A stretch of 64,000 nt of DNA from positions 78,423 to 142,422 of the forward strand of contig CAZUFC010000003.1 of assembly GCA_964619725.1 (NCBI GenBank), written 5' to 3'. The stretch comes from an uncultured bacterium (GTDB lineage: Bacteria; CSSED10-310; CAZUFC01). Positions within the stretch are counted from its first letter, which is position 1; every line of letters begins with the position of its first letter. Shown here in pieces: positions 2,460 to 31,614 of the stretch. The notes beneath the pieces are model-generated. The model was not told the origin of the DNA. It searched no databases and worked only from the letters and a program-made list of their open reading frames with translations. The translations under genes were made by a program, and so were the position numbers.

Positions 2460-3452
2460 TTATTCCGCTTCCGCAGCCACCGTCGCCGCACTTTTCTGGA
2501 TTCGTTGAGAAAACCACCCGCCCGTATAGCCGTCAAGCGCCGCTGTGAGTTCCTCTATCTTTAATTCATTCTTTATCCTGACTTCCAAACGCGCTCCGGG
2601 GTTCATGATAACGTCGATCAGTATCCGCTTCCTGTCAAAATAAAGTTTCGTAACTTCTTCGAGTATATCTTCCCTTAACTCAACCAGGTCTTCTGATTCA
2701 TTCGCTACCCGAAGCATATCGGAGTTGAACACAAAATCGTCCAAATCCCAGGTGAACTGAAATTGCAGTTCCCAATCGTCATCCGTATCTTCTCTCTTAG
2801 TAATATCGTCGGGTCCGATTACGACATTTCCCGTACTGGACGAGATGCTGATGTTAGTGCGTCTTTGATATGAGCGGTCCATTTCCGTGTCGCGGTCCAG
2901 GGTAAACTTGAACCTGGGAAGCAGCGCTTTGTTTTTTGAATTCCGGTACCAGCGACGAATGCGAGACGGATCAATATCGGCATATCTCAGGACAGCGCGA
3001 TGCACTTCGTCTATACCCGGTTCACCCTCAAAATGCTGAAAAACTTCTTCCAGGGTCATTTGAGGTTCAGGCGTGGGCATTGGAAGAACTTCTTTTTCCT
3101 CCATGGAAGGTTCATAAGGTTCCGCTTCCGCTTCCTCTTTCTCCTCCATTTCAGGCTTCTTTTCAGCCTCAGCAGCAGGCTCGCCGGCAGTGATTAACTC
3201 CCTGAGTTTTTCGAGCGTTTTTTCTCCTATCCCTGGTACATCTGTCAGTTGTTCTATACTGCTGAACGCCCCGTGTTCCTGTCTGTAATTGATTATTTTT
3301 TGCGCAGTCGCAGGTCCTATCCCGGGTAAAGTGGTAAGTTCCTCAATCCCCGCCGTGTTTATATTCACCGCTCCGTAAGTTGAACTGACAGCAAAAATGA
3401 TAATCATCGAAAAAAGCAGATTTGCAATTCCAACGAGTCGGCTATGCTTCAT
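2460..3452 (-). CDS. Exported ComEA-type helix-hairpin-helix DNA-binding domain fused to a C-terminal TolC/OEP-like half-repeat
   Basis: Signal peptide, then the classic ComEA HhH core VNINTAGIEELTTLPGIGPATAQKIINYR...VPGIGEKTLEKL. An E/P-rich linker leads to a C-terminal region paralogous to that of 3547-5157. Confidence 0.8.
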   Translation of the reverse strand: MKHSRLVGIANLLFSMIIIFAVSSTYGAVNINTAGIEELTTLPGIGPATAQKIINYRQEHGAFSSIEQLTDVPGIGEKTLEKLRELITAGEPAAEAEKKPEMEEKEEAEAEPYEPSMEEKEVLPMPTPEPQMTLEEVFQHFEGEPGIDEVHRAVLRYADIDPSRIRRWYRNSKNKALLPRFKFTLDRDTEMDRSYQRRTNISISSSTGNVVIGPDDITKREDTDDDWELQFQFTWDLDDFVFNSDMLRVANESEDLVELREDILEEVTKLYFDRKRILIDVIMNPGARLEVRIKNELKIEELTAALDGYTGGWFSQRIQKSAATVAAEAE

Positions 3453-3546
3453 GACTAGCTACTCTCCTTTCAAAAAAAAACGGCCATAGCTTTTATTTTG
3501 CGATTCCGGAAATGTGCTGAGAACCGAAATCCTTTCATTACTTGTA

Positions 3547-5157
3547 TTATTCATTAACATTGACGTAACTCGAAAAAAAGCCCCCTGTCAAGTTATCGAT
3601 TCGAGCTGAAGTTTCCTCAATTTCTAAAGCCAGCAGAATCCGTTCTTCCATCGAAATAGTTTTTTCGTTTTCCTTGTAAGAGGTTATAAGTTTTTTCCTT
3701 TCGCTGTATAGCTGAAGAACAGTTGCTGAAATTTCACGTTCTCTGTCCGATAAATGCCTTATCAACTTTGCAGTCCGGGGTAAATCCCTGTTGAAAAGCA
3801 ATTCGCCCGGATTCCATACCAGGCTGACCTGAAAACTATATGCTTCCTGCTCCGTTTCGTCATAGTCGATTTGATCAGGGCCCAGGACCACTGTTCCATC
3901 GCTGGAAATCCCCAGACTGTTTTCTATGCTGAGCGATTTTGTTTTTTTATCGCTGTAGTCAAAAGTAATCTTTAATGAGGGGAGATAGCGGCTTCTCGAC
4001 GCGTTTTTCAGCCAGCGACGGTTTTTGTTCGGAGATAAATCATAGAACTGGAGCGCCGCCATCTGAATTTGCCTGCCTGAAGGTTCTTCGAAAGCTGTTT
4101 CGTCGTTTTCCGGCAACCTGGAGGAAAAGAATCTCGTTTTTGTATTGACGAGCCTCTCTTCTCGAAACTGGAAAATTCCTCGATTCGTCGCAGCCAATAT
4201 ATGTTCATCGGCTTTAAAGGCGAGGTCGTTTATTGTAATTCCACGGTCGATTTTCGTTGTGACCGACCATTCTCCTTTTTTAGCATCATATGAGTAAATT
4301 TCACCTTTATCCGTGACTGCCGCCACGCCCAGACTCTCAGAATCAGCATGCAATGACTGAAGGCAATTCAAGCCGGCAATCCGGTTCCACGTCGAACCTT
4401 GGTCCCCGGAGTAAAAAACATCACCGTCAGATGCCGCCAGATAGTAGTTCTCCTTCAGACAATCGAACGCTTTTATTTCATCCATTCCCAGGTCCTGAGC
4501 ATACAATATCCTTTCGAAACTCAGATGCGGACGCTCCGTTCTGTATAGTCCTTCAGAAGTGACGATAAGAATTTCGCCTTTTTCTCTATGAGCTATAATC
4601 CTGTGAAATTTCTCCCGCTCGGAAAACCGGATTAGCGGACGCCTTATATTTTCTTCACCGGTCATTATCTCCCAGGCTTCTCTCCCGTTCGCCGCTAATA
4701 AAGACGTTCCCGATACGATCAAAATGTCGCTTATGCTTTTTTCCCTCGCTGTTTCCCGCGCCCAGGTCACTCCCATATCGCTGCTCATGATAATGCCTTT
4801 GTCCGTCACGCAACACAAAAGTCCGGAATCCGGATCGAAAGAATATGAAACCGGCTTCGCACACACTGATGCATCCTCCCCAGGATAGACAACCCTCCAT
4901 TTCATATCCCCGGACGCGCTCATTAACACTCTGTCACGCGTTAACGCAATTATGATTTCTTCGTCACCATGACGGATCATCTCAAGCGACAGCATTTCCC
5001 GCACAAAAAAACCGGGAGTTCTGGAACTCCAGGAAGATTGCGCTTTATCGACGATCCCGTTCGACGAAAGGATAAAAACCAGGGAAAAAATGAAAATAAC
5101 GCGGCGAAATAAACATGATATCCTGAAAAAATTCAAAATACTAATTGGATGATCCAT
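3547..5157 (-). CDS. Exported BNR/Asp-box beta-propeller protein with C-terminal TolC/OEP-like half-repeat
   Basis: Asp-box motifs SSDMGVTW and SGDQGSTW, plus the propeller motif ILAATNRGIF. The C-terminal LPSLKITF...VSLVWN...VLQLYSER...IDNLTGGFFS aligns by eye with 2460-3452. Confidence 0.7.
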   Translation of the reverse strand: MDHPISILNFFRISCLFRRVIFIFSLVFILSSNGIVDKAQSSWSSRTPGFFVREMLSLEMIRHGDEEIIIALTRDRVLMSASGDMKWRVVYPGEDASVCAKPVSYSFDPDSGLLCCVTDKGIIMSSDMGVTWARETAREKSISDILIVSGTSLLAANGREAWEIMTGEENIRRPLIRFSEREKFHRIIAHREKGEILIVTSEGLYRTERPHLSFERILYAQDLGMDEIKAFDCLKENYYLAASDGDVFYSGDQGSTWNRIAGLNCLQSLHADSESLGVAAVTDKGEIYSYDAKKGEWSVTTKIDRGITINDLAFKADEHILAATNRGIFQFREERLVNTKTRFFSSRLPENDETAFEEPSGRQIQMAALQFYDLSPNKNRRWLKNASRSRYLPSLKITFDYSDKKTKSLSIENSLGISSDGTVVLGPDQIDYDETEQEAYSFQVSLVWNPGELLFNRDLPRTAKLIRHLSDREREISATVLQLYSERKKLITSYKENEKTISMEERILLALEIEETSARIDNLTGGFFSSYVNVNE

Positions 5158-8159: not shown

Positions 8160-9401
8160 ATGAGCAGGAAAAATGAGGGTTATACTCGATGTTCTTTTTG
8201 CGGAAAAACAAAGGATCAAGTTCGCAAGATGCTGGCAGGGCCTACAGTTTGCATCTGTAATGAATGCATTCAGCTTTGTTATGAAATAGTCTATCAGGAT
8301 GAATTGAATAATAAAGATTCTATTCCTGAAACGCATGTCCTTCCGAAACCGATAGAAATAAAAAATTTTCTGGATCAATACGTCATCGGGCAGGAAAAAG
8401 CCAAACGAATTCTGTCTGTCGCTGTTCATAATCATTACAAACGGATAGAAGCGAATTACAATTGCGGGGACGTCGAACTTGAAAAAAGCAATATCATGCT
8501 GATCGGACCTTCCGGAAGCGGAAAAACCCTTCTGGCTCAATGCCTGGCAAAAATATTGGATGTCCCTTTCGCCATAGCCGATGCCACAACCCTTACCGAA
8601 GCGGGTTATGTGGGCGAAGACGTCGAAACCATTCTGCTGAAATTGATACAATCTGCCGGAGGCAATATCGCACGAGCTGAAAAAGGGATTATTTATGTAG
8701 ATGAAATTGATAAAGTAAGCAGGAAAAGCGAAAACGTTTCCATTACGCGAGACGTTTCCGGAGAAGGCGTTCAGCAGGCTCTGTTAAAAATTATCGAGGG
8801 AACGATGGCTTCCGTTCCGCCTCAGGGAGGCAGAAAGCACCCCCACCAGGAAACTTACCAGATCAATACCGCCAATATACTTTTCATCGTCGGCGGCGCT
8901 TTCTGCTCACTCGATAAAATAATAGAAAAGAGGATCAATACAAAGGTTATGGGATTCGGCGCCGATATTCAAAGTAAAACGGACAGGCCGCTGGGGGCTG
9001 TTTTAGCCCATGTGCAGCCCCAGGACCTTATCCAATACGGATTGATCCCGGAATTCGTGGGTCGCGTACCCATAATTGCGCCGTTGCATGAGCTGACGGA
9101 ATTGAATTTAGTGCAGATATTGAAAGAACCCAAAAATTCCCTGGTGAAACAATATGAAAAATTATTCGACTTCGAAAACGTCAAACTGAAATTTACCCAG
9201 GAGGCTCTCATGGAAATAGCCAAGGAAGCCCACAAAAGGGACCTGGGGGCCAGAGGTTTGAAGGCGGTGATGGAAGAAGTTATGCTGGATATTATGTTTG
9301 AATTGCCGTCAAAGGAATTAGTCGATACCTGCCTTATCAACAAGGGCGTGATCAATGGCGAAGAAAAACCGATCCTTGAATATAAACACGCTGCGGGATA
9401 A
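8160..9401 (+). CDS. clpX: ATP-dependent Clp protease ATP-binding subunit ClpX
   Basis: CSFCGK...CNEC zinc finger, [42 protein letters not shown] loop. Confidence 0.98.
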
Positions 9402-9420
9402 TTCGGGTTAAAAAGTAAAA

Positions 9421-9458
9421 AAAAAGACCTGCGATTGAAGAATCGCAGGTCTTTTTTT
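9421..9458. terminator. Bidirectional intrinsic terminator between convergent clpX and secreted protein gene
   Basis: AAAAAGACCTGCGATT-GAAG-AATCGCAGGTCTTTTT, a perfect hairpin flanked by A and T tracts. Confidence 0.9.
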
Positions 9459-10902: not shown

Positions 10903-11147
10903 GACAACTGAAAAACTTTTGCCGCAAATACAGCAACCTTCTCTGAAATGATTTTTCGGGCCGCAGCCGGCTTTTAATCTCTTTTTTTCGTTCAATGCCT
11001 CAGCAGCGCTTTAAAATTTCGATGTTAACTTGACAGGATAGAGTCGAATAATGTACCTTAAAAGGGCAAAATCAGGATTTCACTGACAGAAAGAAATCCG
11101 AATATCGGCGGGAAATTGATAGACCGCGGAACGAGGTGACGAACCCA

Positions 11148-12953
11148 ATGAGTCTTAAAATAGGCGAGCAATTAGTAAAGGCTGATCTAATATCTGAAGA
11201 ACAGTTGGAGCAGGCGCTGGCCCATCAGAAAAAGACGAACAGCGGAAGGCTGGGCAGCATTTTAATCAAACTCGGTTTTGTATCGGAGGAAGAGGTTACG
11301 GAAGCGTTGGCGGAGCAGTTTGGCGTGCCGGCGATCAACCTGTCGGACTTTGAAATCGATCCCAACGTATTAAAATTGGTTTCTGCCGATGTTGCTCGAA
11401 GATATCAACTTATTCCGATTTCCAGGACGGGTTCTTCTCTGACGATCGCCATGGCTGATCCGACCAACGTATTCGCCCAGGACGACATAAAATTTATTAC
11501 GGGGTATCATGTGGAGGCTGTGGTGGCTTCTGAGGCAGCGGTTCAGGAGGCTATAAAAAAGTATTACGGAACAGGAAAAAGCATCGTAGGGACATCGTTC
11601 GATCTGGATGACCCGGCGGAACTGGAAATCGAAGACTACAAGCAGTTCGACGAGGAATTGGACGAAGAATTCGATGAAGAGATGATCAACATAGGCGATT
11701 TTGAAGACCTGGTTACTCAGTCAGTGGATGAGCTGGAAATAGCGGAAGAGACAGATGAGATAGATACTTTGCGTGAAGAGGATGTCGACGCTCCGATCGT
11801 CAAGCTGGTAAACGGCATTTTAATCAAAGCGATCAATTCGGGTGTGAGCGACATACACTTTGAACCTTATGAAAAGCAATTCAGGGTGCGATACAGGTTG
11901 GACGGAGTGCTTCGCAAGGAGCTGGCTCTTCCGATGAGGATCAAAAACGCGGTTACGTCGCGATTAAAGATTATGGCGAGTTTGGACATTTCCGAGAAGA
12001 GGCTTCCCCAGGACGGTCGTATTAAAATGAAGCTGGGACCGAGAAGGGAGATCGATTTCCGCGTTTCTGCCATGCCGACGCTTTACGGCGAAAAAGTGGT
12101 GCTCAGAATTCTGGATAAAGCCAGCCTGAAACTCGACATGACCCAACTGGGATTTGAATCGCAGCAATTGGCGGAGTTTCAGGAGGCTATTCACAAGCCT
12201 TACGGAATGGTGCTGGTCAGCGGACCTACAGGAAGCGGGAAAACTACGACGCTTTACTCCGCTCTCAGTCAGCTGAATTCTGTCGCTGACAACATCATGA
12301 CCGCTGAAGACCCTGTGGAATATAACCTGATGGGGATTAATCAGGTTCAGATGAAAGACGATATCGGACTCAATTTTGCCGCAGCGCTGCGCTCTTTTTT
12401 AAGGCAGGACCCGGATATCATCATGGTGGGTGAGATTCGAGATTTTGAAACCGCTGAAATCGGGATCAAGGCCGCCTTGACAGGACATCTGGTTTTAAGT
12501 ACTATTCATACTAACGACGCTCCGAGCACGATTAACCGTCTTTTGAACATGGGTATTGAACCGTTCCTCGTTTCGAGTTCCCTGATTCTGGTTCAGGCAC
12601 AAAGATTGGCGCGAAGAGTCTGTAAAAATTGCGCCGAACCCGTTCATCTGCCGCCGGAAGCTTTGCTGGACATTGGATTCGATGAGGAAGAAATCGACGA
12701 ATTGGTGATATATAAAGGAAGAGGCTGTCAGGAATGCGGCGAAACCGGATATAAAGGGAGAATAGCTCTGTTTGAAGTGATGCCGATTACGGATGAGTTG
12801 AGAGAACTGATCCTGAGAGGAGCTTCTTCCATGGAAATAAAAGAAACTGCCATGGCTTTAGGAATGAGAACATTGCGAGATTCCGGATTGGAAAAGATTC
12901 GCGAGGGAATAACAAGCGTTGAGGAAATCGTGCGCGTAACTTTCGGTAATTAG
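11148..12953 (+). CDS. pilB: Type IV-A pilus assembly ATPase PilB with N-terminal MshEN-like domain
   Basis: SDIHFEP, GPTGSGKTTTLY, LRQDPDIIMVGEIRD and tetracysteine CKNC...CQEC. GAGGTG RBS favours the ATG at 11148. Confidence 0.96.
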   Translation: MSLKIGEQLVKADLISEEQLEQALAHQKKTNSGRLGSILIKLGFVSEEEVTEALAEQFGVPAINLSDFEIDPNVLKLVSADVARRYQLIPISRTGSSLTIAMADPTNVFAQDDIKFITGYHVEAVVASEAAVQEAIKKYYGTGKSIVGTSFDLDDPAELEIEDYKQFDEELDEEFDEEMINIGDFEDLVTQSVDELEIAEETDEIDTLREEDVDAPIVKLVNGILIKAINSGVSDIHFEPYEKQFRVRYRLDGVLRKELALPMRIKNAVTSRLKIMASLDISEKRLPQDGRIKMKLGPRREIDFRVSAMPTLYGEKVVLRILDKASLKLDMTQLGFESQQLAEFQEAIHKPYGMVLVSGPTGSGKTTTLYSALSQLNSVADNIMTAEDPVEYNLMGINQVQMKDDIGLNFAAALRSFLRQDPDIIMVGEIRDFETAEIGIKAALTGHLVLSTIHTNDAPSTINRLLNMGIEPFLVSSSLILVQAQRLARRVCKNCAEPVHLPPEALLDIGFDEEEIDELVIYKGRGCQECGETGYKGRIALFEVMPITDELRELILRGASSMEIKETAMALGMRTLRDSGLEKIREGITSVEEIVRVTFGN

Positions 12954-12970
12954 GCTTTCGGGAGATTATT

Positions 12971-14074
12971 ATGCTGAGTTTGACGACTCTTTTATCTGTT
13001 TTGCTGGAGAAGAAGGCTACGGATTTACATATAACGACAGGCGTCTGTCCGCATTTAAGAATAGACGGCATACTGCATCCGTTGTCTCAATTTCCCGTTC
13101 TGGGGCCCAAAGATACCAAGCAACTGGCTTACAGTATTTTAACCGACGTTCAGAAACACAAGTTGGAAGCGGATAAGGAATTGGACTTTTCATTCGGGAT
13201 AAGAGGATTGAGCCGCTTTCGCGCCAACGTATTCATGCAGCGCGGGGCTGTGGCTATGGCCATCAGAACCATCCCTTTCCGCATACCCAGTTTTGAAGAG
13301 TTGGGTTTGCCCAGGGTTATCTCTGATTTGGCTCATAAGCCTAAAGGGCTCATACTGGTGACAGGTCCGACCGGATGCGGGAAATCGACTACTCTGGCGG
13401 CCATCATTGACAAAATCAACCGAGAGAAAAAATTACATGTCGTAACGATAGAAGACCCGATCGAATATCTGCATCAGCATCACGGGTGCGTGGTTAATCA
13501 GAGAGAAATCCTGGCCGACACGAAATCATTCGCCGCCGCTCTTCGATCTATTCTCAGGCAAGACCCGGACGTGATACTCGTCGGAGAGATGAGAGACCTG
13601 GAAACCATTCAGGCCGCTTTGCGATGCGCTGAAACCGGTCACCTTACCTTCGCCACGCTCCACACCAACTCAACCGTCGAAACGGTCAACCGTATTATCG
13701 ATGTTTTTCCGCCTCATCAGCAACAGCAAATTCGCACCCAGTTGTCATTCGTCCTCGAAGGCATCGTCTGTCAAACGCTCCTCCCCAGAAGAAGCGGTAA
13801 AGGCCGCGTCCTCGCTCTTGAAATTATGTGCCCCAACGATGCCATCAGAAATCTGGTCAGAGAAGACAAGATTCATCAAATTTATTCCATTATGCAGATG
13901 GGACAGGATCGATACGGGATGGTCACTTTTAATCAGTCTTTGCTTGCGCTCTATTTAAGAAAACAGATTTCCCTCCAGGAAGCCAGAAATAGAACGATGA
14001 AACCCCAGGAATTCGAGCAAATGTTGCTGAAATCCGGAGAGACTCAGGTTTCTTCTCGCCATAGAAGAATTTGA
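12971..14074 (+). CDS. pilT: Type IV pilus retraction ATPase PilT
   Basis: GPTGCGKSTT, TIEDPIEY, AETGHLTFATLHTN and the AIRNLVRE PilT signature. Confidence 0.96.
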   Translation: MLSLTTLLSVLLEKKATDLHITTGVCPHLRIDGILHPLSQFPVLGPKDTKQLAYSILTDVQKHKLEADKELDFSFGIRGLSRFRANVFMQRGAVAMAIRTIPFRIPSFEELGLPRVISDLAHKPKGLILVTGPTGCGKSTTLAAIIDKINREKKLHVVTIEDPIEYLHQHHGCVVNQREILADTKSFAAALRSILRQDPDVILVGEMRDLETIQAALRCAETGHLTFATLHTNSTVETVNRIIDVFPPHQQQQIRTQLSFVLEGIVCQTLLPRRSGKGRVLALEIMCPNDAIRNLVREDKIHQIYSIMQMGQDRYGMVTFNQSLLALYLRKQISLQEARNRTMKPQEFEQMLLKSGETQVSSRHRRI

Positions 14075-14147
14075 CATTTTTTAACAGAGGACAAGACTTT
14101 GTTTAGAAAACAATTCCTTTCAAATCTTTAGATGGAGGAAAATCAAA

Positions 14148-15362
14148 ATGGCCGAATTCAAATGGATCGGTAAGGATCAGACCGGTAAGGAAGTAAAAGG
14201 AGTCATGTCGGCCGAAACCTCCGATCAAGTTAAACTCCAATTGCGCCGACAGAAAATAGAGCCCGTCAATGTTAAGAAGAGATTGAAGGACATTCAGATT
14301 GTTATTCCGGGACTGTCTTATCGTATTACGGAGAGAGATCTGGTGGTTTTTACCCGAACCTTTTCCACAATGGTCGATGCCGGGCTTCCGCTGGTGCAAT
14401 GCCTGGAAATCCTTTCACAGCAGACGGAGAACCCGGTTTTCGCCAAGGCGATCAATGATATTCGACAAAATGTCGAATCCGGAAGTACATACGCCGATGC
14501 TTTGCGTAAACATCCCAAAATTTTCAATGAATTGTATTGCAATATGGTGGAAGCGGGCGAAACGGGCGGTATTCTCGACACTATCTTGAACCGACTTGCC
14601 TCATACATGGAAAAAAATATATCGTTGAAGCGACAGGTCAAATCCGCACTGGTTTATCCCGGATTCATCATCACGGCTGCAGTGATCGTTATTTCATTCA
14701 TGATGTACTATGTGATACCGACTTTTACCCAGATTTTCGTCCAGTTGGGCAGCACGCTTCCTTTGCCGACGAAAATAGTTATGGGCATCTCTTCCGTAGT
14801 CAAATCGTATATTCACTTTTTCATCTTGGGCATCATATTGATCATTTTGGGCATTCGAGCGATTCACAAGCGGGAGAAAGGCGCATTGTTCATTGACGGA
14901 CTTCTTTTAAAATTACCGGTTCTGGGCTCGTTGTTCAGAAAAGTCGCTGTCGCCAAGTTCACGAGAACTCTGGGAACTCTCATCAGTTCGGGCGTTTCCA
15001 TCCTCGATGGTCTGGAAATTACGGCGAAAACGTCAGGAAATAAAGTCGTTGAGGAAGCCGTGATGAAAACGCGTGTCAGCATTAGCGAAGGAAAAACCAT
15101 TTCCGAACCATTGGCTCAGACCGAAGTCTTTCCTCCCATGGTCGTTCAGATGATTGCCGTGGGAGAATCTACCGGTGCGCTGGATTCCATGTTGGAAAAA
15201 ATTGCAGACTTTTACGATGAAGAAGTCGATGTGGCCGTCGCTAATCTTACGCAGTTGCTGGAACCGTTTATGGTGGTTTTTCTGGGGGTTACCGTAGGCG
15301 GCATCGTCGTCGCCATGTACATGCCGCTGTTTAAATTAATCGGCGAGTTGTCCATGCGCTGA
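14148..15362 (+). CDS. pilC: Type IV pilus platform protein PilC (GspF family)
   Basis: FTRTFSTMVDAGLPL, AGETGGILD, VGESTGALD, LLEP...VAMYMPLF; follows pilB-pilT. Confidence 0.95.
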   Translation: MAEFKWIGKDQTGKEVKGVMSAETSDQVKLQLRRQKIEPVNVKKRLKDIQIVIPGLSYRITERDLVVFTRTFSTMVDAGLPLVQCLEILSQQTENPVFAKAINDIRQNVESGSTYADALRKHPKIFNELYCNMVEAGETGGILDTILNRLASYMEKNISLKRQVKSALVYPGFIITAAVIVISFMMYYVIPTFTQIFVQLGSTLPLPTKIVMGISSVVKSYIHFFILGIILIILGIRAIHKREKGALFIDGLLLKLPVLGSLFRKVAVAKFTRTLGTLISSGVSILDGLEITAKTSGNKVVEEAVMKTRVSISEGKTISEPLAQTEVFPPMVVQMIAVGESTGALDSMLEKIADFYDEEVDVAVANLTQLLEPFMVVFLGVTVGGIVVAMYMPLFKLIGELSMR

Positions 15363-15412
15363 TAATTTCTTCACGAAAAATTCCGGATCGAGGATGCACG
15401 TTTGTTTACAAC

Positions 15413-17176
15413 GTGATGGTTGATATCGATAGTGATCGAAAAAGAATACGGACATTAATCGCAGTCCGTGTCGTCGTCGCTCTTACACTTCTCCTGGGAT
15501 CGGGAATACCTCTTTACATCGGGAGCGAATTCACTAAATCCGTATCGCTTATCCTGTTTAAATTCGTGTTCGTTATTTTCGCCGTTTCTCTGGTTTATTC
15601 CCTTTTATTAAACAGGATCAGGAGAGTTCTTTTTTTCGGTTGCATTCAGATTATCGTCGACGTTATTTTGGAATCGGTCATCGTTTTCTATACCGGTCAG
15701 ACTGGCAGTCCTTTCACCATCCTATACATTTTTACAATTATCTACGCCGGGATTATTCTCAGAAAACATTCCTGCTTCATCTTTGCTGCGCTCTGTTCGA
15801 GCATGTACGTCTGGATGGTCGCAGGAAAAATGCTGAATGTTCTTCCCTTGAAAGAGACCGTTTTCACTCATTTGAACGTCACGATGCCGGTTTCCGAGCT
15901 GGTTTATTTCACAATCGTCAATTTGATCGGCTTTTTTACCGTCGCTTATTTTACCGACTACATATCCGGAAAATTGGAACACACGGATAAACTGCTCAAT
16001 CAGCAGATTTCTCTCGTCGGAGATTTGCAATCTCTAAGATCGAATATACTGCAAAGTATGGCCAATGGCCTCATAACTCTGAACGGCAATGGAGAAATAG
16101 ACCTCGTCAACAACGCTGGGGAGCGTATCCTCGGTTTGCGAGAAGAACAGCTCCAAAGAAAACTCATTGAAGAGATTTTTCCTGATTCTACGGCTGAAAA
16201 AATTAAAAATATAATTAAAAATTTGTCGCAATCAGGAGAGCTCAACGAAGAATTCGAATATATAAAGGAAGGCAAAAATATTCCTCTGGGGCTGGCGGCG
16301 TCTCCTCTGAAAGATGCCAGAGGAAGACAAGTCGGCGCGCTGATATTGCTCAATGATTTGACAAACAAAAAAGAGCTGGAGAAGCACAAGCAGGCGGCCG
16401 ACCGGTGGGCTGCAGTTGCTGAACTCGCAGCCAACATGGCCCATGAAATCAGGAATCCCCTGGCCGCGATCAGCGGCAGCATTGAAGTCTTGCAGGAATC
16501 CATGAAGCTGGACGATACCGATACCCGGCTCATGGACATTATTCTGCGCGAATCGAGCCGACTGAATACACTGATTTCAGACTTCCTGAATTACGCTAAA
16601 CCGCCCGTACTTGAGAAAAACCAATGCGACCTTATTAAGCTGCTCAAAGAAACATCTACTCTCGCCGAATCGGATACTGGAAGGAAGAATCAATTGAAAA
16701 TAATCAGCGATTACAGGATTTCTTCCTTGTATATTCCTCTTGATGCCAAGCAGATTAAACAGGTTTTCTGGAACTTGATTCGTAACGCTATGGAAGCCAT
16801 GCCTGAAGGCGGAATTTTAAAAATTTCAGTCACTAAGGAAAAATATATTAATTCCTCTGACCAGCCTGCCAATTCCAGGGATAAATTTTTCGTCATAGGA
16901 GCCGATGCGATAGAGAATATGGAATATGCCTGCATTTCTTTTAAAGATAACGGGATAGGGATTTCCGAGGAGAATCTGAGTTCTATTTTTAATCCATTCA
17001 CAAGCTTTAAAGAGAACGGATCGGGTTTGGGATTAGCCATCTCATATCGTATAATAAAAGATCATGGAGGAAGGATTGCCGTTAAAAGCATCCCGAATGT
17101 CGGAACGGTTATTGATCTATTCCTTCCTTTGGAACAAACCGCCGAAATGCTGACGGCCGTTACCCAGGAGATTTGA
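15413..17176 (+). CDS. pilS: PilS-like sensor histidine kinase (multi-TM, PAS, HisKA, HATPase)
   Basis: About 6 TM segments, AHEIRNPL, NLIRNA, DNGIGI, GSGLGLAI; position between pilC and an NtrC-type regulator. Confidence 0.85.
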   Translation: MMVDIDSDRKRIRTLIAVRVVVALTLLLGSGIPLYIGSEFTKSVSLILFKFVFVIFAVSLVYSLLLNRIRRVLFFGCIQIIVDVILESVIVFYTGQTGSPFTILYIFTIIYAGIILRKHSCFIFAALCSSMYVWMVAGKMLNVLPLKETVFTHLNVTMPVSELVYFTIVNLIGFFTVAYFTDYISGKLEHTDKLLNQQISLVGDLQSLRSNILQSMANGLITLNGNGEIDLVNNAGERILGLREEQLQRKLIEEIFPDSTAEKIKNIIKNLSQSGELNEEFEYIKEGKNIPLGLAASPLKDARGRQVGALILLNDLTNKKELEKHKQAADRWAAVAELAANMAHEIRNPLAAISGSIEVLQESMKLDDTDTRLMDIILRESSRLNTLISDFLNYAKPPVLEKNQCDLIKLLKETSTLAESDTGRKNQLKIISDYRISSLYIPLDAKQIKQVFWNLIRNAMEAMPEGGILKISVTKEKYINSSDQPANSRDKFFVIGADAIENMEYACISFKDNGIGISEENLSSIFNPFTSFKENGSGLGLAISYRIIKDHGGRIAVKSIPNVGTVIDLFLPLEQTAEMLTAVTQEI

Positions 17177-18579
17177 TGGGAAAACTACTTGTCGTCGATG
17201 ATGAGCCGAGCATCTGCGCTATGCTCAGCATAATGTTTGAGAAACAGGGACATTCGGTCAAATCATGCACCAGCGCTCAAAAAGCCCTCGCCTCTATCCA
17301 GGACGAAAATGAATTCGATGTTCTGATTTCCGATATCAAGATGCCTGAAATGGATGGTCTGGAGCTTTTGAAGTCAGTTAAAAACATAAATCCCAATCTT
17401 CCGGTCATTTTAATTACGGCTCATGACAATAAAGAAACCGCCGTTTCCGCGTTGAAACACGGCGCCGAGGATTACATTGTTAAGCCTTGGAAAAAGGAGG
17501 AATTGAGGTTTCTGGTTGAGAGGGCCATTCGGAACCGTCGACTGAAAGAAGAGAATTTGATTCTCAAGCAGGAATTACAAACGCATTATCGATTTGAAAA
17601 TATTATCGGTAACAGCAAAAAAATTAGAAATATTTGGGGTACGATAAGAAAAGTGGCGGACCTGGATGCCACTGTTCTGATTACGGGCGAAAGCGGTACC
17701 GGAAAAGAGCTCATAGCATCGGCCATTCATTATGCAGGAGCCCGAAAAGAGAAGCCTTTCGTCACCGTCAATTGCGGCGCTTTACCTGAAAGCCTGCTTG
17801 AATCGGAACTTTTCGGACATAAAAAAGGAGCTTTTACAGGCGCTTATCAGAATAAGCCGGGTTTATGCGAAGTGGCGCATACCGGGACAGTGTTTCTTGA
17901 TGAAATCGGTGAAATAAGTCCCTCATTTCAGATAAAACTGCTCCGTTTCCTCAACGATAAAAAGTTGAAAAGATTGGGCAGCGTGGACGACATTACCGTG
18001 GACGTCAGAGTTATAGCCGCTACAAATAAAGACCTCCAGGCCGCAGTAAACGAGGATAAATTCCGCCAGGACCTCTTCTATCGGCTGAACGTCATTCCTA
18101 TACACGTGCCGCCGCTGAGGGAAAGGAAGGAAGATGTTCCTCTTCTCGCCGAATTTTTTCTTCAAAAATATTGTGAAAGATGTCGATGTGAATTGAAAAG
18201 ATGTTCTTCAGAAGCCATAAATCTCATGATAGAATACAAATGGCCGGGCAATGTGAGGGAACTGGAAAACGTCATCGAAAGAACGGTGGCTTTGGAACCG
18301 AAGCCTTTGATCATTCCGGAAAGTCTGCCTCCGGAGATTCGTCAAGCCGGCAGAAAAAAATATTATTCGATAAACGATATAGAAAAAGAACCGGCCAGTC
18401 TTGACGATATTCTCAGCAATATTGAGAAGAATATTCTGGTCGATGCGTTAAAGAAAACCGACGGGGTAAAAATGAAAGCCGCAGAATATTTGAAGATCAG
18501 TTTCCGTTCATTAAGATATCGGTTGCAAAAACACGGATTAGGCGATAACAATAACGTCGATGAAACGAAGGAGTTATAG
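17176..18579 (+). CDS. pilR: PilR-like sigma54-dependent response regulator (REC-AAA-HTH)
   Basis: LLVVDDE, GESGTGKE, GAFTGA, WPGNVRELEN and HTH ISFRSLRYRL; TGATG coupling to pilS. Confidence 0.88.
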   Translation: MGKLLVVDDEPSICAMLSIMFEKQGHSVKSCTSAQKALASIQDENEFDVLISDIKMPEMDGLELLKSVKNINPNLPVILITAHDNKETAVSALKHGAEDYIVKPWKKEELRFLVERAIRNRRLKEENLILKQELQTHYRFENIIGNSKKIRNIWGTIRKVADLDATVLITGESGTGKELIASAIHYAGARKEKPFVTVNCGALPESLLESELFGHKKGAFTGAYQNKPGLCEVAHTGTVFLDEIGEISPSFQIKLLRFLNDKKLKRLGSVDDITVDVRVIAATNKDLQAAVNEDKFRQDLFYRLNVIPIHVPPLRERKEDVPLLAEFFLQKYCERCRCELKRCSSEAINLMIEYKWPGNVRELENVIERTVALEPKPLIIPESLPPEIRQAGRKKYYSINDIEKEPASLDDILSNIEKNILVDALKKTDGVKMKAAEYLKISFRSLRYRLQKHGLGDNNNVDETKEL

Positions 18580-22594: not shown

Positions 22595-25500
22595 TCAATG
22601 TTGCTTTTTGGGCCAGGGAATTCTGTATTCTTCCATTTTTCTGTCAAGCGTCGGTCGAGAAATGCCAAGGACTCTGGCAGCATCAATTTTTCTCCAACGA
22701 AGTTTTTTGAGAGTTCTTTGGATGTGTTTTTTTTCCATTTCAGCGAGAGAAAAGAGTTCATGCTCTTCTGTTTCGTCGACTTCTTCAACGGAGACGTTTT
22801 TAATACGAGGCGGAAGGTCTTTTCTTTTGATGAGCGGCGGTTTTCCGTAGACGACGGCGAATTCGACAACGTTTTCTAGGTCTCTGACATTCCCAGGCCA
22901 ATTATATTTTTTAAGGCATGTAATGGCTTCTCTGGTAAAGCCCTTGAACATTTTATTCATGCGTTTCATTTTTCTGGCGAGGAATTCAGCAGCAAGGATG
23001 GGGATGTCGTCTTTTCTTTCCCGGAGAGGGGGAAGCCGCAGGGGTAGCACATTGATGCGGTAGAAGAGGTCTTCCCTGAAATTACCATTTTTGACTTCTT
23101 TGATGAGGTCTTTGTTGGTAGCGGTAATGATACGGACGTCGACTTTACGTTTTTTACCGGCGCCGAGCTTTTGAATTTCTCCGTCATTGAGCGCTCTGAG
23201 CAATTTTGATTGAACGATGAAATTCAACTCAGCGATTTCATCGAGGAAGAGCGTGCCGCCGTCAGCGATTTCGAAGGCTCCTTTTTGATCTCTGTAAGCG
23301 CCGGTAAAGGAGCCTTTGACATGTCCGAAAATCTGGGATTCGAGCAATGATTCCGGAATAGCGGCGCAGTTAACAGGGTGAAAAGGTTTATCTCTTCTGG
23401 CGCTGTTCAGGTGAATGGCTCTGGCGAAAAGGTCCTTGCCTGTGCCCATTTCTCCTTCAATGAGGACCGTAGAATCGCTTTGAGAAATGTTGGGCAATTG
23501 TTTAAAAAGGTCCAGCATTTTTTTGCTGTTTCCGATGATAAGGTTCTGATAGCTGTATTTTTGTTCCACGTTCTTTTTGAACAGGAGGAATTCTTCCTGT
23601 TGCTGCTTGTAATAATTCGATCTGTCGATGGCGACCGCGGCAAGATTGGCGAAAGCGGAAAGAAAATCCCTGTCTCTTTCGCTGAACAAGTCCTGACTTT
23701 TTCTGCTGTCGACGTAAATAGTACCGATGATTTTATTTTCGATGAACATAGGGACGCACAGAAGCGACAATATATTGTACATCTGAACGCTTCTGAATCT
23801 GAAGAAACGTTCGTCCGACAGGGCATTGTTTGAGAATAAGGGTTCATTTTTTTCGAGTGTGGAGCGGACGATGTTTCTGCTGTAGTCCTTGGCGTCCTCC
23901 ATGGTTTTAGGGTCCAGATTCTTGGTAACCTGAGGATAAAGTTCACCGCTGCTGTCGTCCAAAAGAAATATCATGCCTCTTTCGGCTCCCACAAAACGAA
24001 TGGCCTGTTCCAATATACGTTCCAGCAGGTCTTCCGGCTCGGTTAAAGAATTAAGAATCGAAGCGATCTGAGAAAAAGTGTCGAGCAGCACGTAAACGTC
24101 TGTTTGCGTTTTAGTCTGCATCTCGCTTTCAATTTTTTTCACCAGCCCCTGAGCTTTAGCCAGCTCCGATTGAGCTTCCAGACGCTGGAAATTGTCGACA
24201 GCATTTTTGGAAAATCTCAACGCTTTTTCATAATCCTTCAATTCTATAAAAAGATTGGCGAATGTTAAATAAACGCGACTCAATCCCGCCACCGAATCCA
24301 GTTCCTGGAAAAATTTGAGCGCTTTATCCAGGTCGCTTCTGGCTTTATTGAACTGCTTCTGTTTCAGCCGGATTTTTCCGAGAAGATGATGGATTTCAGA
24401 AGATTCCATTTTATGGCCGACTTGCTCAGCAAGCTCAAGCGCCTTATCGCATAAATCAACGGCCTGATCCACATCATCCTGCGCCAGCTTTACCTCTGCC
24501 AGTATCCTCGTGTTCTTCGCCAGATTCTTGCCGGCCTCCATTTCACTGTAGAGGTTGATCGATTTGTTGAGGAACTTTTCGGCCAGGGGATATTCGCCTT
24601 TCTCTTTGTATATGTTGCCGATATGCGAAAAACAATCCGCCATGCCGCCCTGATCCTTGGAACGAATCCAGATTTCCAGGCTCTCGTTGAAAAACTTCAA
24701 CGCATCATCCCAGCGTCCTGTTCGCTGCTTCAGAAAACCCAAATTTAAAAGATTTCGCGCTATCTCAATGTGCTGATTATACTTCTCCGCCAAACTCAGC
24801 GCCTTCCTGAAACAGCTCTCCGCTTTTTTCCACTGTCCTATATCCTCGAACAACAGTCCGAGATTGGTGTTGGAACTTATGATCAGGCGGTGATCGTTCA
24901 TTTTTTGGCCGATCATTATGGCCAAATTGAAAAATTCCTCAGCCTTCGCCACTTCGCCCAGTTCCCGATGTGTGTTGGCTAAAAATTGATAGATTTTCGC
25001 CAGTTGAAAAAAATTCCCCGTTTTATGGAATATCTCCAGGCTGTAATTAAAGTGTTCGAGAGCTTGATGATACTGACTTTTTTTGAAAAAAACCAGTCCC
25101 AAATTTAAATAATTCACCGCCCGTACATCGATATTCTTGTTCGCATCCAACAAAGAAAGAGCCTGACGATAAGTGTCCCTCGCATCATCAAGTTTTCCCA
25201 GAGAAAGATAAGCGCTTCCCATAGCATTATATATTTTGCTCTTCTGAAGGTCCATCTGCTTTTGACTTTTGACCTTGCTGAGCGTCTCTTCGCATATTTC
25301 CAACGCTTGATCGATTTCCCTTTTTTCAATATGCTGCCAGGCTAAATCCATCTTTAATGAAACGCCTGTTCGACTCTTGCTCCAATCGGGAAGAACCTCC
25401 AATCCCTTCTCCATAATTTCTCTGGCTTTTTCCGCGTTCCCTTTTCTTTTTTGCAGCCTGGCAAGATTCATGTAGAGAGAACTGATTTTCTCCGCGGAAA

Positions 25501-27904
25501 ATTTGCGGTTTTTAACTATCTGAAGAGCCTTATTGTAAGCATCTTCCGACTCGCTGTACCGCCCCGTTCGTCCCAGTAACTGGCCCATGGATTTCAGCGC
25601 CTCAAATTTGTGTTTCAGCGCTCCTTTTTTCCTCATCATTTCCAGGGACCACTGATAATAGGTCAATGCCTGCTGGATATTATAAATCGACGCAGACTGA
25701 TGACCGGCTCTCAGCGCATACAACGCCCCCTTCTGATAATTGTTCGAATGGTAATGATGGTAAGCTAGGTCTCCCGCCTTCTTCTCCTGATCCTCTTGAG
25801 TCTTCTTCTCATAATATTTGGCGACTCTTTTGTGGTACAATTCTCTCGTTTTTTTATCAATCGCCGAATAGATGTATTCTTTCATCGGAAGATAACTGAA
25901 CCTGTATCTTAAATCGCCGTTGGCGGATACCGTCGTGATCAGTCGCCGGTTCATCAGCTTCGAGAGACTTTCCAATACCAGGTAGGAATCGATGTTGGCC
26001 AAACCCACTATGTCCTCCACCGTGAAATCGCCCCTCAATACTGAAGCATGACGAAGCAATTCCCAATCCGTTTTGAATAAACCCTCCAGACGTCCCTCCA
26101 TCGATTGCTGTAAAGATTGTGGAATTTTATGCTGCTTGGATTTTCCGGATTGAAATATCCAGCTTTCCCCACGTAACTCGATGACTCCCTTCTCGATCAT
26201 TGAATAGAGTATCTCTTCAACAAAAAGAGGATTGCCGCTTGTCGCCTTGTACGCCTCATCCGTTATCACTTCTTCAAAATTCGCAGCGCCGAGCATCGAC
26301 GAAAGCATCTCCTGCGTGCTCTTTTTGTCGAAAGGTTCAAGGTTCACCACGTTCGAATACAAATCCTCGCTATGAACCGACTCTCTTCCCGGCGAACCCA
26401 TGCCCGAACGCGTTTCGAAATAATCGTCGTCCATTGTCGCCAGTAACATTAAATGACAACGATCCTCCTTGTCAGTGTAATCCTCGTAGCGGTTCAACGT
26501 GTTCAAAAAATACTTCAGATAATCCAGGCTGCTCTGATCAGAAAAATGAATATCCTCTACCGCCAACACCAGCGGATCTACGCCGTTCTGAGGGTCCACG
26601 ATTCTTTTAGTCATCTCCCAGATAAAATGAGATAAACTCTCAAAGAGAAGTATCTTGTCCTTTTCAGATTTGATCTCTAACGGCTGATTCCGCAAAGATG
26701 CCTCTTCACTCTCGTAAAATTCCGGCGCCAAACGGCTCAATTGTACCTTGTACTTTTCAAGTATGCCGGATGCCTCAGCCCCCAAATACTTGACCATCTG
26801 ATTCAGCAATTCAACTATCGTCTGATAAGCTTTGTCTTCATCATGATGACAAACGCTCTTGAAAATCCGCGCTCCTCCTATCTGCACCTCGCGCTCAAAC
26901 TCATTAAGAAGCCGCGTCTTCCCGACGCCGAACTCTCCCTTTATAAGACAGGATTGAGGCTTATTGTTCTTTACTTCCGATAAATACCGCTGAAGAGCCG
27001 AAAACTCCTCTTCGCGACCGATGAAACTGCTGTAAAATCTGAAAGTCGTCGGAGTCAGTATACGCTTCGCTTTCATCGGAGTCACCAAATCTCCCAGAAC
27101 CTCAGTCGCATGCCGATATCGGAGAGCCGGGTCCTTCGCCAGCAATTTCTGAATCACCCCACTTAAACGCTGGGGCACCTCCTCGTTTATCTCTCGCGGC
27201 GGCGAAACCTCCTTTTCCAAATGCGCCATGCCCGTCTTTAACGGCGTATCCATCAAAAAAGGATTCTTCCCCGTCACCAGCTCATAAGCTACTACTCCCA
27301 GTGAATATAAATCCGCTCGCTGATCCACCGGCTTGTTCGAAAAATATTCCGGCGCCGTATACCCTAAATTGCCGCGCAGCGTCGAAGCCCCCTTCTTCTG
27401 ACTTAAAAGCTTGAACCAGCCCGCATGACCGAAATCCACCAGCTTCACGCTGTATGAACGACGGGCTTCGCCCGCTCCTGAATTCTGAAGCAATATGTTC
27501 CCCGGATTTATGTCGCCGTGAATTATACCCAACCTGTGCATGTAAGACAACGCCTGGCATATCTGGACCATTAAACGGGAAAATAAAAAATAATCTGGCC
27601 GCCGCGCCTCAATCGCTTCCGTCATCTTCGGACCCTTGATATGCTCCATCGTGAAAAATACCCGGTAGCCGCTCAATATCCCGCCTCGATAAAAATCAAA
27701 CGCACGCACGATGTTGGGATGACGTAATTGTGACAATATGCGATACTCGTTCTCCAGCGCCTTCACTTCTTCTTCCTCCACCGCCGTCTTCAGTATCGCC
27801 TCGCGCTCCTCGTAATCATCCCGAACAAGATAAAGATTGCCCCATCCCCCCTGGTCAATCTGCTCGATTATCTTGTATCTGCCCCCTAATATCACGCTTT
27901 CCAT
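22595..27904 (-). CDS. Ser/Thr kinase - STAND NTPase - TPR array - GAF - sigma54 activator AAA+ - Fis HTH fusion (1769 aa)
   Basis: Kinase: GGWGNLY, HGDINPGN, DFG, YTAPE, ADLYSLG. STAND: FIGREEE, GEFGVGKT, VEDIH, SGNPLFVEE. Long TPR array. GAF: AERGMIFL...IGTIYVDS. Activator: GEMGTGKD, GSFTGA, LFLDEI, WPGNVRDLEN. HTH: AARVLGISRPTLDRKM. Confidence 0.93.
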   Translation of the reverse strand: MESVILGGRYKIIEQIDQGGWGNLYLVRDDYEEREAILKTAVEEEEVKALENEYRILSQLRHPNIVRAFDFYRGGILSGYRVFFTMEHIKGPKMTEAIEARRPDYFLFSRLMVQICQALSYMHRLGIIHGDINPGNILLQNSGAGEARRSYSVKLVDFGHAGWFKLLSQKKGASTLRGNLGYTAPEYFSNKPVDQRADLYSLGVVAYELVTGKNPFLMDTPLKTGMAHLEKEVSPPREINEEVPQRLSGVIQKLLAKDPALRYRHATEVLGDLVTPMKAKRILTPTTFRFYSSFIGREEEFSALQRYLSEVKNNKPQSCLIKGEFGVGKTRLLNEFEREVQIGGARIFKSVCHHDEDKAYQTIVELLNQMVKYLGAEASGILEKYKVQLSRLAPEFYESEEASLRNQPLEIKSEKDKILLFESLSHFIWEMTKRIVDPQNGVDPLVLAVEDIHFSDQSSLDYLKYFLNTLNRYEDYTDKEDRCHLMLLATMDDDYFETRSGMGSPGRESVHSEDLYSNVVNLEPFDKKSTQEMLSSMLGAANFEEVITDEAYKATSGNPLFVEEILYSMIEKGVIELRGESWIFQSGKSKQHKIPQSLQQSMEGRLEGLFKTDWELLRHASVLRGDFTVEDIVGLANIDSYLVLESLSKLMNRRLITTVSANGDLRYRFSYLPMKEYIYSAIDKKTRELYHKRVAKYYEKKTQEDQEKKAGDLAYHHYHSNNYQKGALYALRAGHQSASIYNIQQALTYYQWSLEMMRKKGALKHKFEALKSMGQLLGRTGRYSESEDAYNKALQIVKNRKFSAEKISSLYMNLARLQKRKGNAEKAREIMEKGLEVLPDWSKSRTGVSLKMDLAWQHIEKREIDQALEICEETLSKVKSQKQMDLQKSKIYNAMGSAYLSLGKLDDARDTYRQALSLLDANKNIDVRAVNYLNLGLVFFKKSQYHQALEHFNYSLEIFHKTGNFFQLAKIYQFLANTHRELGEVAKAEEFFNLAIMIGQKMNDHRLIISSNTNLGLLFEDIGQWKKAESCFRKALSLAEKYNQHIEIARNLLNLGFLKQRTGRWDDALKFFNESLEIWIRSKDQGGMADCFSHIGNIYKEKGEYPLAEKFLNKSINLYSEMEAGKNLAKNTRILAEVKLAQDDVDQAVDLCDKALELAEQVGHKMESSEIHHLLGKIRLKQKQFNKARSDLDKALKFFQELDSVAGLSRVYLTFANLFIELKDYEKALRFSKNAVDNFQRLEAQSELAKAQGLVKKIESEMQTKTQTDVYVLLDTFSQIASILNSLTEPEDLLERILEQAIRFVGAERGMIFLLDDSSGELYPQVTKNLDPKTMEDAKDYSRNIVRSTLEKNEPLFSNNALSDERFFRFRSVQMYNILSLLCVPMFIENKIIGTIYVDSRKSQDLFSERDRDFLSAFANLAAVAIDRSNYYKQQQEEFLLFKKNVEQKYSYQNLIIGNSKKMLDLFKQLPNISQSDSTVLIEGEMGTGKDLFARAIHLNSARRDKPFHPVNCAAIPESLLESQIFGHVKGSFTGAYRDQKGAFEIADGGTLFLDEIAELNFIVQSKLLRALNDGEIQKLGAGKKRKVDVRIITATNKDLIKEVKNGNFREDLFYRINVLPLRLPPLRERKDDIPILAAEFLARKMKRMNKMFKGFTREAITCLKKYNWPGNVRDLENVVEFAVVYGKPPLIKRKDLPPRIKNVSVEEVDETEEHELFSLAEMEKKHIQRTLKKLRWRKIDAARVLGISRPTLDRKMEEYRIPWPKKQH

Positions 27905-29980: not shown

Positions 29981-30484
29981 TTATCTGAACAGCTTGTTCA
30001 GCAAATTGTTGATTTTTGGAATGTTTATATAGGAAGGACCGTAATCGCCCGTCATGTTCGGCCTGACGCCTTCTCCGCACAGAAAAATCGCATCCTCCTC
30101 AGAATAGATGCCCACCACGAAATTCTCTTCCCGGCATATGTCGGAAAAGTCTTTGATCAAAGGACGAAGATTTCTGAGAATCTTATTTACATCGTTTGAG
30201 CGGGGCTTGCTGTCTGCATCAAGGAGATTCAGAACAAAAAGAAACGGGCGGAAAAGAAGATTCAACCGGTCGGGAAGAAGAAAATTAATTTTCAGCTCCT
30301 TAGAGTCCCGTTTTAGGCTCAAAAGGGTTGATTTTCGGCTGTTAATTTGTAAATCCAGGGGCGTTTTTTTCGATTCCTCGATTATCTCGGGAAGTTCCGC
30401 AAAAATCTCAGCGAACTGATCCCCGGCCGCCATTTCATGAATATTTTCCGTCAAGTGAGACAGTCGGTTTATTATATCGTTCAT
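29981..30484 (-). CDS. Hypothetical protein (167 aa)
   Basis: GGAGG RBS and clean ORF; no recognisable motif. Confidence 0.6.
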   Translation of the reverse strand: MNDIINRLSHLTENIHEMAAGDQFAEIFAELPEIIEESKKTPLDLQINSRKSTLLSLKRDSKELKINFLLPDRLNLLFRPFLFVLNLLDADSKPRSNDVNKILRNLRPLIKDFSDICREENFVVGIYSEEDAIFLCGEGVRPNMTGDYGPSYINIPKINNLLNKLFR

Positions 30485-31494: not shown

Positions 31495-31614
31495 TGATTA
31501 AACGTTTGACTTTTTAAGCTTCGAAGCGCTAAATAAGAAAAGGTGAAAAGGTCAAATAGTCATTGCAACAAGAGTCGATTTTCAATGAACCGCAAACATC
31601 AAAGGAATAAAAAA

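Follow-up and report, generated by a model that had tools for sequence, protein, structure and literature searches.

The locus studied here raises the question of what a C-terminal domain (CTD) is for when it is shared by two adjacent, exported proteins, one of which also carries a ComEA-type DNA-binding domain and the other a beta-propeller. The two genes, P0001 and P0002, lie at positions 2460 to 5157 of a 64,000-nucleotide stretch of DNA (contig CAZUFC010000003.1, assembly GCA_964619725.1; referred to here as the window) from a bacterium of CSSED10-310, described in PMC8248873 as a rare, uncultured phylum. From sequence profiles, predicted folds and the distribution of the domain, we conclude that the CTD is probably a remote, shortened, single-repeat relative of the outer membrane efflux protein (OEP) superfamily, and we favour, with less assurance, an interpretation in which P0001 and P0002 are subunits of an outer-membrane-anchored oligomer built from this "half-TolC" module. 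The genes and their parts are as follows, in window coordinates and with the basis of each assignment in brackets.

3547..5157, minus strand: P0002 gene, 536 aa, with a signal-like N-terminus, a 7-bladed propeller, a linker and the CTD (open reading frame (ORF) list; translation; AlphaFold2 model with a predicted local confidence, pLDDT, of 83.8)
5053..5157, minus strand: putative hydrophobic signal peptide or membrane anchor, P0002 residues 1-35 (model helix 7-32; sequence reading)
4162..5034, minus strand: 7-bladed beta-propeller, BNR/Ycf48/HTCS-sensor like, P0002 residues 42-332 (28 strands in the model; Foldseek)
4087..4161, minus strand: linker, mostly of low confidence, P0002 residues 333-357 (pLDDT < 50 at 338-342 and 345-355)
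3550..4086, minus strand: CTD, a probable single OEP-like repeat, P0002 residues 358-536 (BLASTP; model; own-genome profile match 2.0e-53)
3952..3978, minus strand: P0002 strand 1, residues 394-402, after the conserved (L/Y)LP motif (model; within the inter-chain contact stretch)
3817..3843, minus strand: P0002 strand 2, residues 439-447, amphipathic, with an invariant W at its end (model)
3462..3470, minus strand: Shine-Dalgarno-like AAAGGAGAG, 9 nt ahead of the P0001 start (sequence reading)
2460..3452, minus strand: P0001 gene, 330 aa, with a signal peptide, a ComEA-type helix-hairpin-helix (HhH) domain, an acidic linker and the CTD (ORF list; translation)
3372..3452, minus strand: putative signal peptide, P0001 residues 1-27, with a basic n-region, a hydrophobic core and ...TYG/A (sequence reading)
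3189..3371, minus strand: ComEA-type double HhH domain, P0001 residues 28-88 (HHH_3; TIGR00426)
3024..3188, minus strand: acidic Pro/Glu-rich linker, P0001 residues 89-143 (sequence; unalignable among relatives)
2463..3023, minus strand: CTD, a probable single OEP-like repeat, P0001 residues 144-330 (AlphaFold2 pLDDT 83.0; hhalign; VIA-align; own-genome profile match 1.1e-79)
2892..2915, minus strand: P0001 strand 1, residues 180-187 (strand 41-48 of the model; alternating hydrophobic columns)
2745..2774, minus strand: P0001 strand 2, residues 227-236, of the pattern W-x-L-x-F-x-F-x-W, alternate positions being charged or polar (strand 88-97 of the model; column profile)

Two fusion proteins with a shared domain

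The two CTDs are paralogous. BLASTP aligned residues 144-319 of P0001 with residues 358-533 of P0002 at 56 of 177 identical positions (32%), with 2 gaps and an E-value of 2e-25, and the alignment contains every motif pair listed by a first-pass annotation of this DNA, which had claimed a common domain of ~180 aa in the two exported proteins. A profile search of the organism's own genome returned the CTD in two copies only, those of P0001 and P0002. Beyond this genome, a word-indexed database search yielded 66 relatives at E <= 1e-3 among 614 candidates, and a cluster search with a profile built from 33 of these 66 extended the family to 3619 clusters (50% identity) at E <= 1e-3, with 1111 at <= 1e-30. 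Since the domain recurs on this scale, the similarity between P0001 and P0002 is not a product of chance. The CTD was C-terminal in all family members examined, and in P0001, P0002 and the 33 family members it matched no Pfam or NCBIfam model. Three main architectures were found, i.e., a signal peptide followed by the CTD (~200-250 aa), HhH plus CTD (~290-340 aa) and propeller plus CTD (~500-650 aa); longer fused forms were limited to three proteins of 581-613 aa and offered no new architecture. In Atlas look-ups, the only clusters returned were unnamed ones of this family and one of HHH_3. Full-text literature searches, judged by their listings, gave no relevant title for a single-repeat TolC relative or for an outer-membrane ComEA fusion.

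The N-terminal domain of P0001 matched Pfam HHH_3 (E 3.4e-24, 85.2 bits, cut-off 27) and the NCBIfam model of the ComEA HhH repeat region (TIGR00426; 76.3 bits, cut-off 53.1), so the ComEA domain noted at first pass is real, and the score stayed under the cut-off for full-length comE (TIGR01259; 82.6 versus 152.35 bits), the match being limited to residues 27-88. P0001 resembles ComEA in being an exported double HhH protein with both (L/V)PGIG hairpins. It differs in carrying the putative half-OEP domain at its C-terminus, whereas ComEA is soluble or anchored in the inner membrane, and its gene does not stand next to comEC as other HhH genes of the same genome do. The beta-propeller proposed for the other protein was likewise recovered, as seven blades of 28 strands at residues 42-332 of the P0002 model. 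Foldseek matched this propeller to the periplasmic sensor domain of BT4673 (1.1e-12) and to Ycf48 (2.5e-11), and it superposes on periplasmic sensor propellers (the Bacteroides hybrid two-component proteins BT4673 and BT4663, and Ycf48) over ~310-330 columns at E 1e-12 to 3e-11; its match to NCBIfam NF045728 (4e-13) lay under that model's cut-off. Unlike the sensor propellers, P0002 has no kinase or transmembrane signalling part and is fused to the putative half-OEP domain, and it gives only weak BNR/Asp-box signals in its sequence.

Among species-representative genomes, 277 of 301 CTD pattern matches were confirmed. The best 80 of these came from CSSED10-310 (the closest), Omnitrophota (the majority), Myxococcota, Bradymonadales, metagenome-assembled genomes designated Planctomycetes and a single one designated Margulisiibacteriota. 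Of these 80 loci, 14 had a pair of adjacent CTD genes, the long one before the short one, and 66 had one CTD gene, mostly a propeller-CTD gene of Omnitrophota. Within CSSED10-310 the CTD was found in 13 of 14 genomes and as exactly two adjacent matches in 12 of 14, the present one included; the exceptions were one 93%-complete genome without a match and one with a single match. In each of the five CSSED10-310 genomes checked, the ORF of the short CTD also contained an HHH_3 match, immediately ahead of that domain, and HHH_3 was also found in 8 of 25 scanned family members of 253-364 aa. Therefore, the ComEA fusion is a conserved, single-copy feature of the phylum rather than a one-off, which sustains this part of the first-pass annotation. 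In the gap of 94 nt between P0002 and P0001, a good ribosome-binding site precedes the P0001 start by 9 nt and no promoter-like site was found, so that the two genes are likely co-transcribed, as judged from the sequence. The read sets listed for this DNA comprised four of DNA, all from one study, and none of RNA.

A quick maximum-likelihood tree placed the short (HhH) and long CTDs of CSSED10-310 as sister clades (SH-aLRT 98 and 94) and the Omnitrophota single-gene CTDs in a clade of their own (support 96), with deeper placements unsure because of long branches. In every paired locus, the end branches of the long proteins measured 1.7-4.4, as against 0.3-0.7 for their short neighbours, i.e., since the duplication the CTD of the propeller protein has changed at several times the rate of its short counterpart. 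At another locus of unrelated lineage, L061, a separate 225-aa double-HhH ComEA-like protein (8753-9427; HHH_3 1.2e-44) is encoded two genes downstream of a CTD pair (952 aa and 306 aa); here, the CTD module and ComEA-type domains occur together for a second time, independently.

Likeness of the domain to one OEP repeat

We compared a CTD profile of 204 sequences by hhalign with OEP profiles built from the two-repeat OEP genes of the organism's own genome (13 ORFs) and of the phylum (31 in all), the deepest of which comprised 62 single repeats. Results showed that the probability climbed as the OEP profile deepened, from 14.5% with an early profile to 33.9% (P 4.3e-4) with the 13 OEPs, to 47.8% for repeat 1 and 15.4% for repeat 2 with the 31 OEPs, and finally to 73.7% (P 2.9e-5, score 36.7, 144 collinear columns) with the 62 single repeats. 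Control scores were 12.6-15.1 for reversed profiles, and 50 block-shuffled OEP profiles gave means of 15.6-17.8 and a maximum of 20.6, the CTD-OEP match lying ~10 standard deviations above the shuffled set. Brought into register were the helix at the N-terminus, both strands (the (L)LP one and the Trp one) and the long helix. The CTD profile aligned once to each of the two OEP repeats, and each protein holds one CTD copy. Similarly, a hidden Markov model (HMM) of the 62 repeats, run with no filters, found 23 of the 204 CTDs at E <= 1e-3 and 42 at 10 bits or more (maximum 20.1), compared with none of the reversed CTDs at that score (maximum 4.9); P0001 itself scored 8.8 bits. These results uphold the earlier proposal that each CTD resembles one OEP repeat. 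Nevertheless, by its sequence the CTD lies outside PF02321 as the family is currently delimited.

The predicted fold gives the same order of elements. In both AlphaFold2 models the CTD starts with two helices, followed by two strands on either side of a loop, a 40-residue helix, a turn and the return helices (in P0002, helices 361-371 and 376-391, strands 394-402 and 439-447, and helices 458-496, 503-524 and 527-535), and the order assigned by DSSP (helix, strand, strand, long helix, return helix) is the topology of an OEP repeat. Throughout the family, every other residue of strand 2 follows W/L/F/F/W/L, the residues between being charged or polar, and Trp flanks the strand; strand 1 is shorter, with three outward hydrophobic positions only, and the loop between the strands is acidic and variable in length. 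Interpreted as a remote, shortened OEP repeat, the CTD would thus begin with two short helices and continue with a strand preceded by a conserved LLP motif, a loop that is acidic and variable, and an amphipathic strand with a terminal invariant Trp; the 40-residue helix would then lead through a conserved PPxD turn into a return helix that ends in a nearly invariant LTGG(W/F)FS motif. The comparison with TolC and OprM proposed at first pass came out divided. VIA-align superposed TolC, OprM, VceC, OprN/J and TOprJ1 on 143-157 of 191 residues, but at Z-scores of 5.3-6.1 only, and Foldseek searches of the PDB returned no match for the CTD at E <= 1e-3. The superpositions extend from CTD model residues 3-6 to 179-191 and fall on the first OEP repeat (OprM 46-248, VceC 72-275), and in a second look at the results the TolC-family chains were the matches of longest coverage. 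Searches of PDB sequences with the CTD gave chance rows only, namely a condensin (E 0.42, single sequence) and a designed NTF2 protein (E 0.013, profile).

Set beside TolC and its relatives, the CTD shares the order of elements of one repeat (short helices, a strand preceded by (L)P, a second strand, the long helix and the return helix), an L..(A/T)(L/V)G-like motif at the helix end, as in the OEP C-termini of its own genome, and, in the model described below, a predicted assembly through strand pairing between protomers. There are also differences. Its chains have one repeat rather than two, so that about six chains instead of three would be needed for 12 strands; its long helix has 40 residues, compared with ~67 in TolC; its proteins carry N-terminal passengers (HhH or propeller) that OEPs lack; and the pair has no neighbouring gene for an adaptor or inner-membrane pump. 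A conserved (D/N)-P-P-x-D, at residues 284-288 of P0001, marks the turn from the long helix to the return helix and is kept in relatives. In OEPs, the helix tips at the equivalent turn dock the periplasmic adaptor, and by analogy this turn of the CTD may be a contact site for peptidoglycan or another partner.

A predicted strand-paired ring and its alternatives

Complex prediction was performed on six chains, three of each CTD, cut to 166 residues apiece. The 3:3 model passed the binding test with ipSAE values of 0.62, 0.62 and 0.58, compared with 0.00 for the best control; of the solved complexes, 58 of 80 attain this mark, as do 2 of 110 mismatched pairs. Three runs agreed in at least 92% of contacts (partner pLDDT 65-68), the contacts of lowest error were antiparallel (P0002 397-410 with P0001 219-233, and P0002 443-446 with P0001 183-187), and both hairpin edges were listed as interface in all six copies. 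As modelled, these contacts describe a closed, alternating ring formed through strand pairing. The hetero-hexamer suggested by the first-pass annotation is therefore plausible, but the implication that both genes are needed does not extend to the whole family, and the 66 of 80 loci with one CTD gene imply homo-oligomers as the ancestral state. Hexameric barrels made from one or few strands per protomer have a precedent, according to PMC10665443, in proteins that span the envelope: long MlaD forms and Mce1 are alike in building a small barrel at their tips from a multimer in this way and differ from the CTD proteins, which lack an MCE domain, an inner-membrane anchor and a lipid tunnel.

In the arrangement that we favour, the hairpins of six CTDs would pair edge to edge into one barrel of ~12 strands, with P0001 and P0002 alternating in a 3:3 ring above a periplasmic helical stalk of ~60 Å (the TolC stalk measures ~100 Å). 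Since both termini are periplasmic in the OEP topology, the N-terminal domains would hang beneath the outer membrane, where P0001 would present its ComEA-type module for double-stranded DNA on an acidic tether of ~55 residues and P0002 its sensor-like, 7-bladed propeller. The assembly would then be a stationary scaffold of the envelope, keeping a propeller that binds ligand and a module that binds DNA at the outer membrane, and an outer-membrane platform with both modules in the periplasm is the likely role. Membrane insertion, the hexamer, its mixed composition, the periplasmic orientation, DNA binding and any channel activity are inferred, whereas the paralogy, the domain content, the size and spread of the family, the conservation of the pair and the statistical and topological likeness to an OEP repeat are observed.

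Several points weigh against this interpretation. The curated Pfam OEP model (PF02321, cut-off 22 bits) was unmatched by all 33 family members at E <= 10, and the genome-wide OEP search, which found 26 matches in 13 ordinary two-repeat OEP ORFs, had no match at the P0001/P0002 locus. The hhalign probability is under the usual acceptance mark of 90-95%, and the reciprocal CTD HMM was non-discriminating, with OEP repeats at 10.8 bits and reversed sequences at 8.2 bits. Against 48,161 chains, the top VIA-align matches were generic helical bundles only (best Z 7.5), so that the TolC-family Z-scores lie within helical-bundle noise (top Z 7.1-7.5); neither did Foldseek add a match, as noted above, and the hairpin loop had pLDDT < 50 in both CTD models. 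The complex test was calibrated on two single chains rather than six and the termini were trimmed by 4-6 residues, the pLDDT of the 3:3 model is only moderate, TolC-like structures may be remembered by the prediction model, and the pass may reflect an ancestral homomer interface, the CTDs being paralogues. Finally, no conserved partner gene at the loci examined accounts for the role of the assembly in this phylum.

The same fold and outer-membrane role could conceivably be served by separate homo-oligomers (6:0 each), in which case the adjacency of the genes would be a relic of tandem duplication and the HhH and propeller proteins would act independently. Homo-oligomers must work at the 66 single-gene loci, close cousins of the true partner also pass the complex test, and the long branches of the propeller-protein CTDs would fit divergence to a separate role. 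However, adjacency and order are kept in 12 of 14 genomes of the phylum and also in Myxococcota-type loci, the 3:3 model is a strictly alternating ring with low-error strand pairs across chains, and the intergenic gap suggests co-transcription; we therefore regard separate homo-oligomers as possible but doubtful. Another alternative would be a CTD that is a soluble periplasmic oligomerisation or coiled-coil domain outside the outer membrane, with an OEP likeness that arose by convergence on a helix-hairpin-helix-bundle topology. The unmatched curated model, fold searches that give generic helical bundles at equal or higher Z, the few outward hydrophobic positions of strand 1 beside a highly acidic loop, and helices much shorter than those of OEPs are all in keeping with it. 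This is unlikely, given that the profile signal is collinear over 144 columns, stands far above the block shuffles and matches both OEP repeats, that the strictly amphipathic strand 2 with its flanking Trp is kept family-wide, that all 80 loci belong to phyla which we take to have two membranes, and that the model pairs the hairpins between chains instead of burying them.

The first-pass annotation had gone further and envisaged an unconventional pore for DNA uptake or export, in which a tethered ComEA domain would ratchet DNA through the barrel of the hetero-hexamer independently of a secretin. Indeed, across the phylum the putative channel module comes fused to a ComEA-type HhH, L061 has its separate double-HhH gene close to a CTD pair, the lumen-facing strand residues are charged or polar, and genes for ComEC, the type IV pilus and a ComM-like protein are all present in the genome. 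However, the canonical sets are found elsewhere in this genome: an HhH gene adjoins ComEC on contig C10, a double-HhH gene lies near the second ComEC on contig C63, and the seven secretins are on other contigs than the pair, so the expected link to comEC and a secretin did not appear. (HHH_3 gave nine matches in all; the assembly is 9.17 Mb with 6.5% contamination, and part of the ComEC/HhH/secretin redundancy could be bin contamination.) The pilBTC and comM genes cited as signs of a competent organism are in the window, but the former are on the opposite strand at 6-13 kb from the pair, with unrelated genes in between, and 56 kb separate the pair from the comM-like gene (61785-63395). Moreover, no efflux or secretion partner adjoins a CTD pair at the loci examined, an open pore is putative on the present data, and the family is dominated by propeller fusions without HhH, which argues that the conserved task of the CTD is not specific to DNA. 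A DNA pore at this locus is accordingly very unlikely. Its boldest version, a secretin-independent conduit descended from the single-repeat ancestor of TolC, in which an alternating hexamer would pass nucleic acid with three ComEA modules as ratchet and three propellers as gate or sensor, is more improbable still.

The exit duct of a tripartite pump was also considered and was rejected because of the short stalk of ~60 Å and the lack of adaptor, RND or ABC-exporter neighbours. HlyD, RND and ABC-exporter genes were not found adjoining the pair in the window, and adaptor or pump genes were absent among 30 neighbour proteins scanned at 7 of 13 mapped paired loci.

Genomic surroundings and significance

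Seven paired loci of the closest relatives (L011-L017) have a fixed gene order, consisting of a GlnD-like gene (~1010 aa), a ~103-aa ORF (called in 4 of the 7), the long CTD gene, the HhH-CTD gene, a Big_5/Lamin-tail gene (~1160 aa) and adenosine kinase. Of this order the window keeps just the CTD pair; its own Lamin-tail domain (LTD) protein is encoded at 31543-34266, 28 kb from the pair. The pil block at 11136-18579 (plus strand) encodes a pilB-like protein (T2SSE and MshEN), a pilT-like protein, a pilC-like protein (T2SSF), a PilS-like kinase and a sigma-54 PilR-like regulator, and Fe-S, DUF362 and ClpX genes lie between it and the pair; an operon link of the pair to pilBTC was rejected on account of these genes and the opposite strand. 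Farther on, 22595-27904 (minus strand) encodes a 1769-aa fusion of a Ser/Thr kinase, AAA_16, many TPRs, GAF, a sigma-54 activator domain and HTH, beside which the ORFs at 28027-29943 (638 aa) and 29981-30484 had no Pfam match.

In many Omnitrophota loci, genes for a sigma factor of the ECF (extracytoplasmic function) class, a zf-HC2 anti-sigma factor and a CHAT plus TPR protein stand directly upstream of the propeller-CTD gene. The loci concerned are L018, L020, L022, L032, L034, L036, L041, L044, L053, L060, L078 and L084. Of the single-gene loci, 30 reach at least 3800 nt upstream; a CHAT-TPR gene was present in 14 of these, an anti-sigma gene in 13 and all three genes in 11. In the DdvS/DdvA system, as described in PMC11506125, the anti-sigma factor itself bears a periplasmic TPR-CHAT domain. 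By analogy, the Omnitrophota set looks like a split version of DdvS/DdvA, and the propeller-CTD protein could be the outer-membrane sensor of such a system.

TolC-type channels are thought to stem from the internal duplication of one repeat. If the half-OEP interpretation is true, this large, unannotated single-repeat family would be the first extant example of the TolC building block, thousands of "hypothetical proteins" would gain a testable structural role, and the CTD would provide a small, expressible domain for the study of shared-barrel assembly. An outer-membrane-tethered ComEA would likewise be a new arrangement for a well-studied competence protein, and were the nucleic acid conduit to prove true, the pair would represent a living "pre-duplication" TolC and a new route for DNA uptake or the handling of extracellular DNA. 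For the little-studied phyla CSSED10-310, Omnitrophota and Myxococcota, the platform that we favour would mean a modular way to fasten periplasmic domains, such as a DNA-binding domain or a propeller, to the outer membrane.

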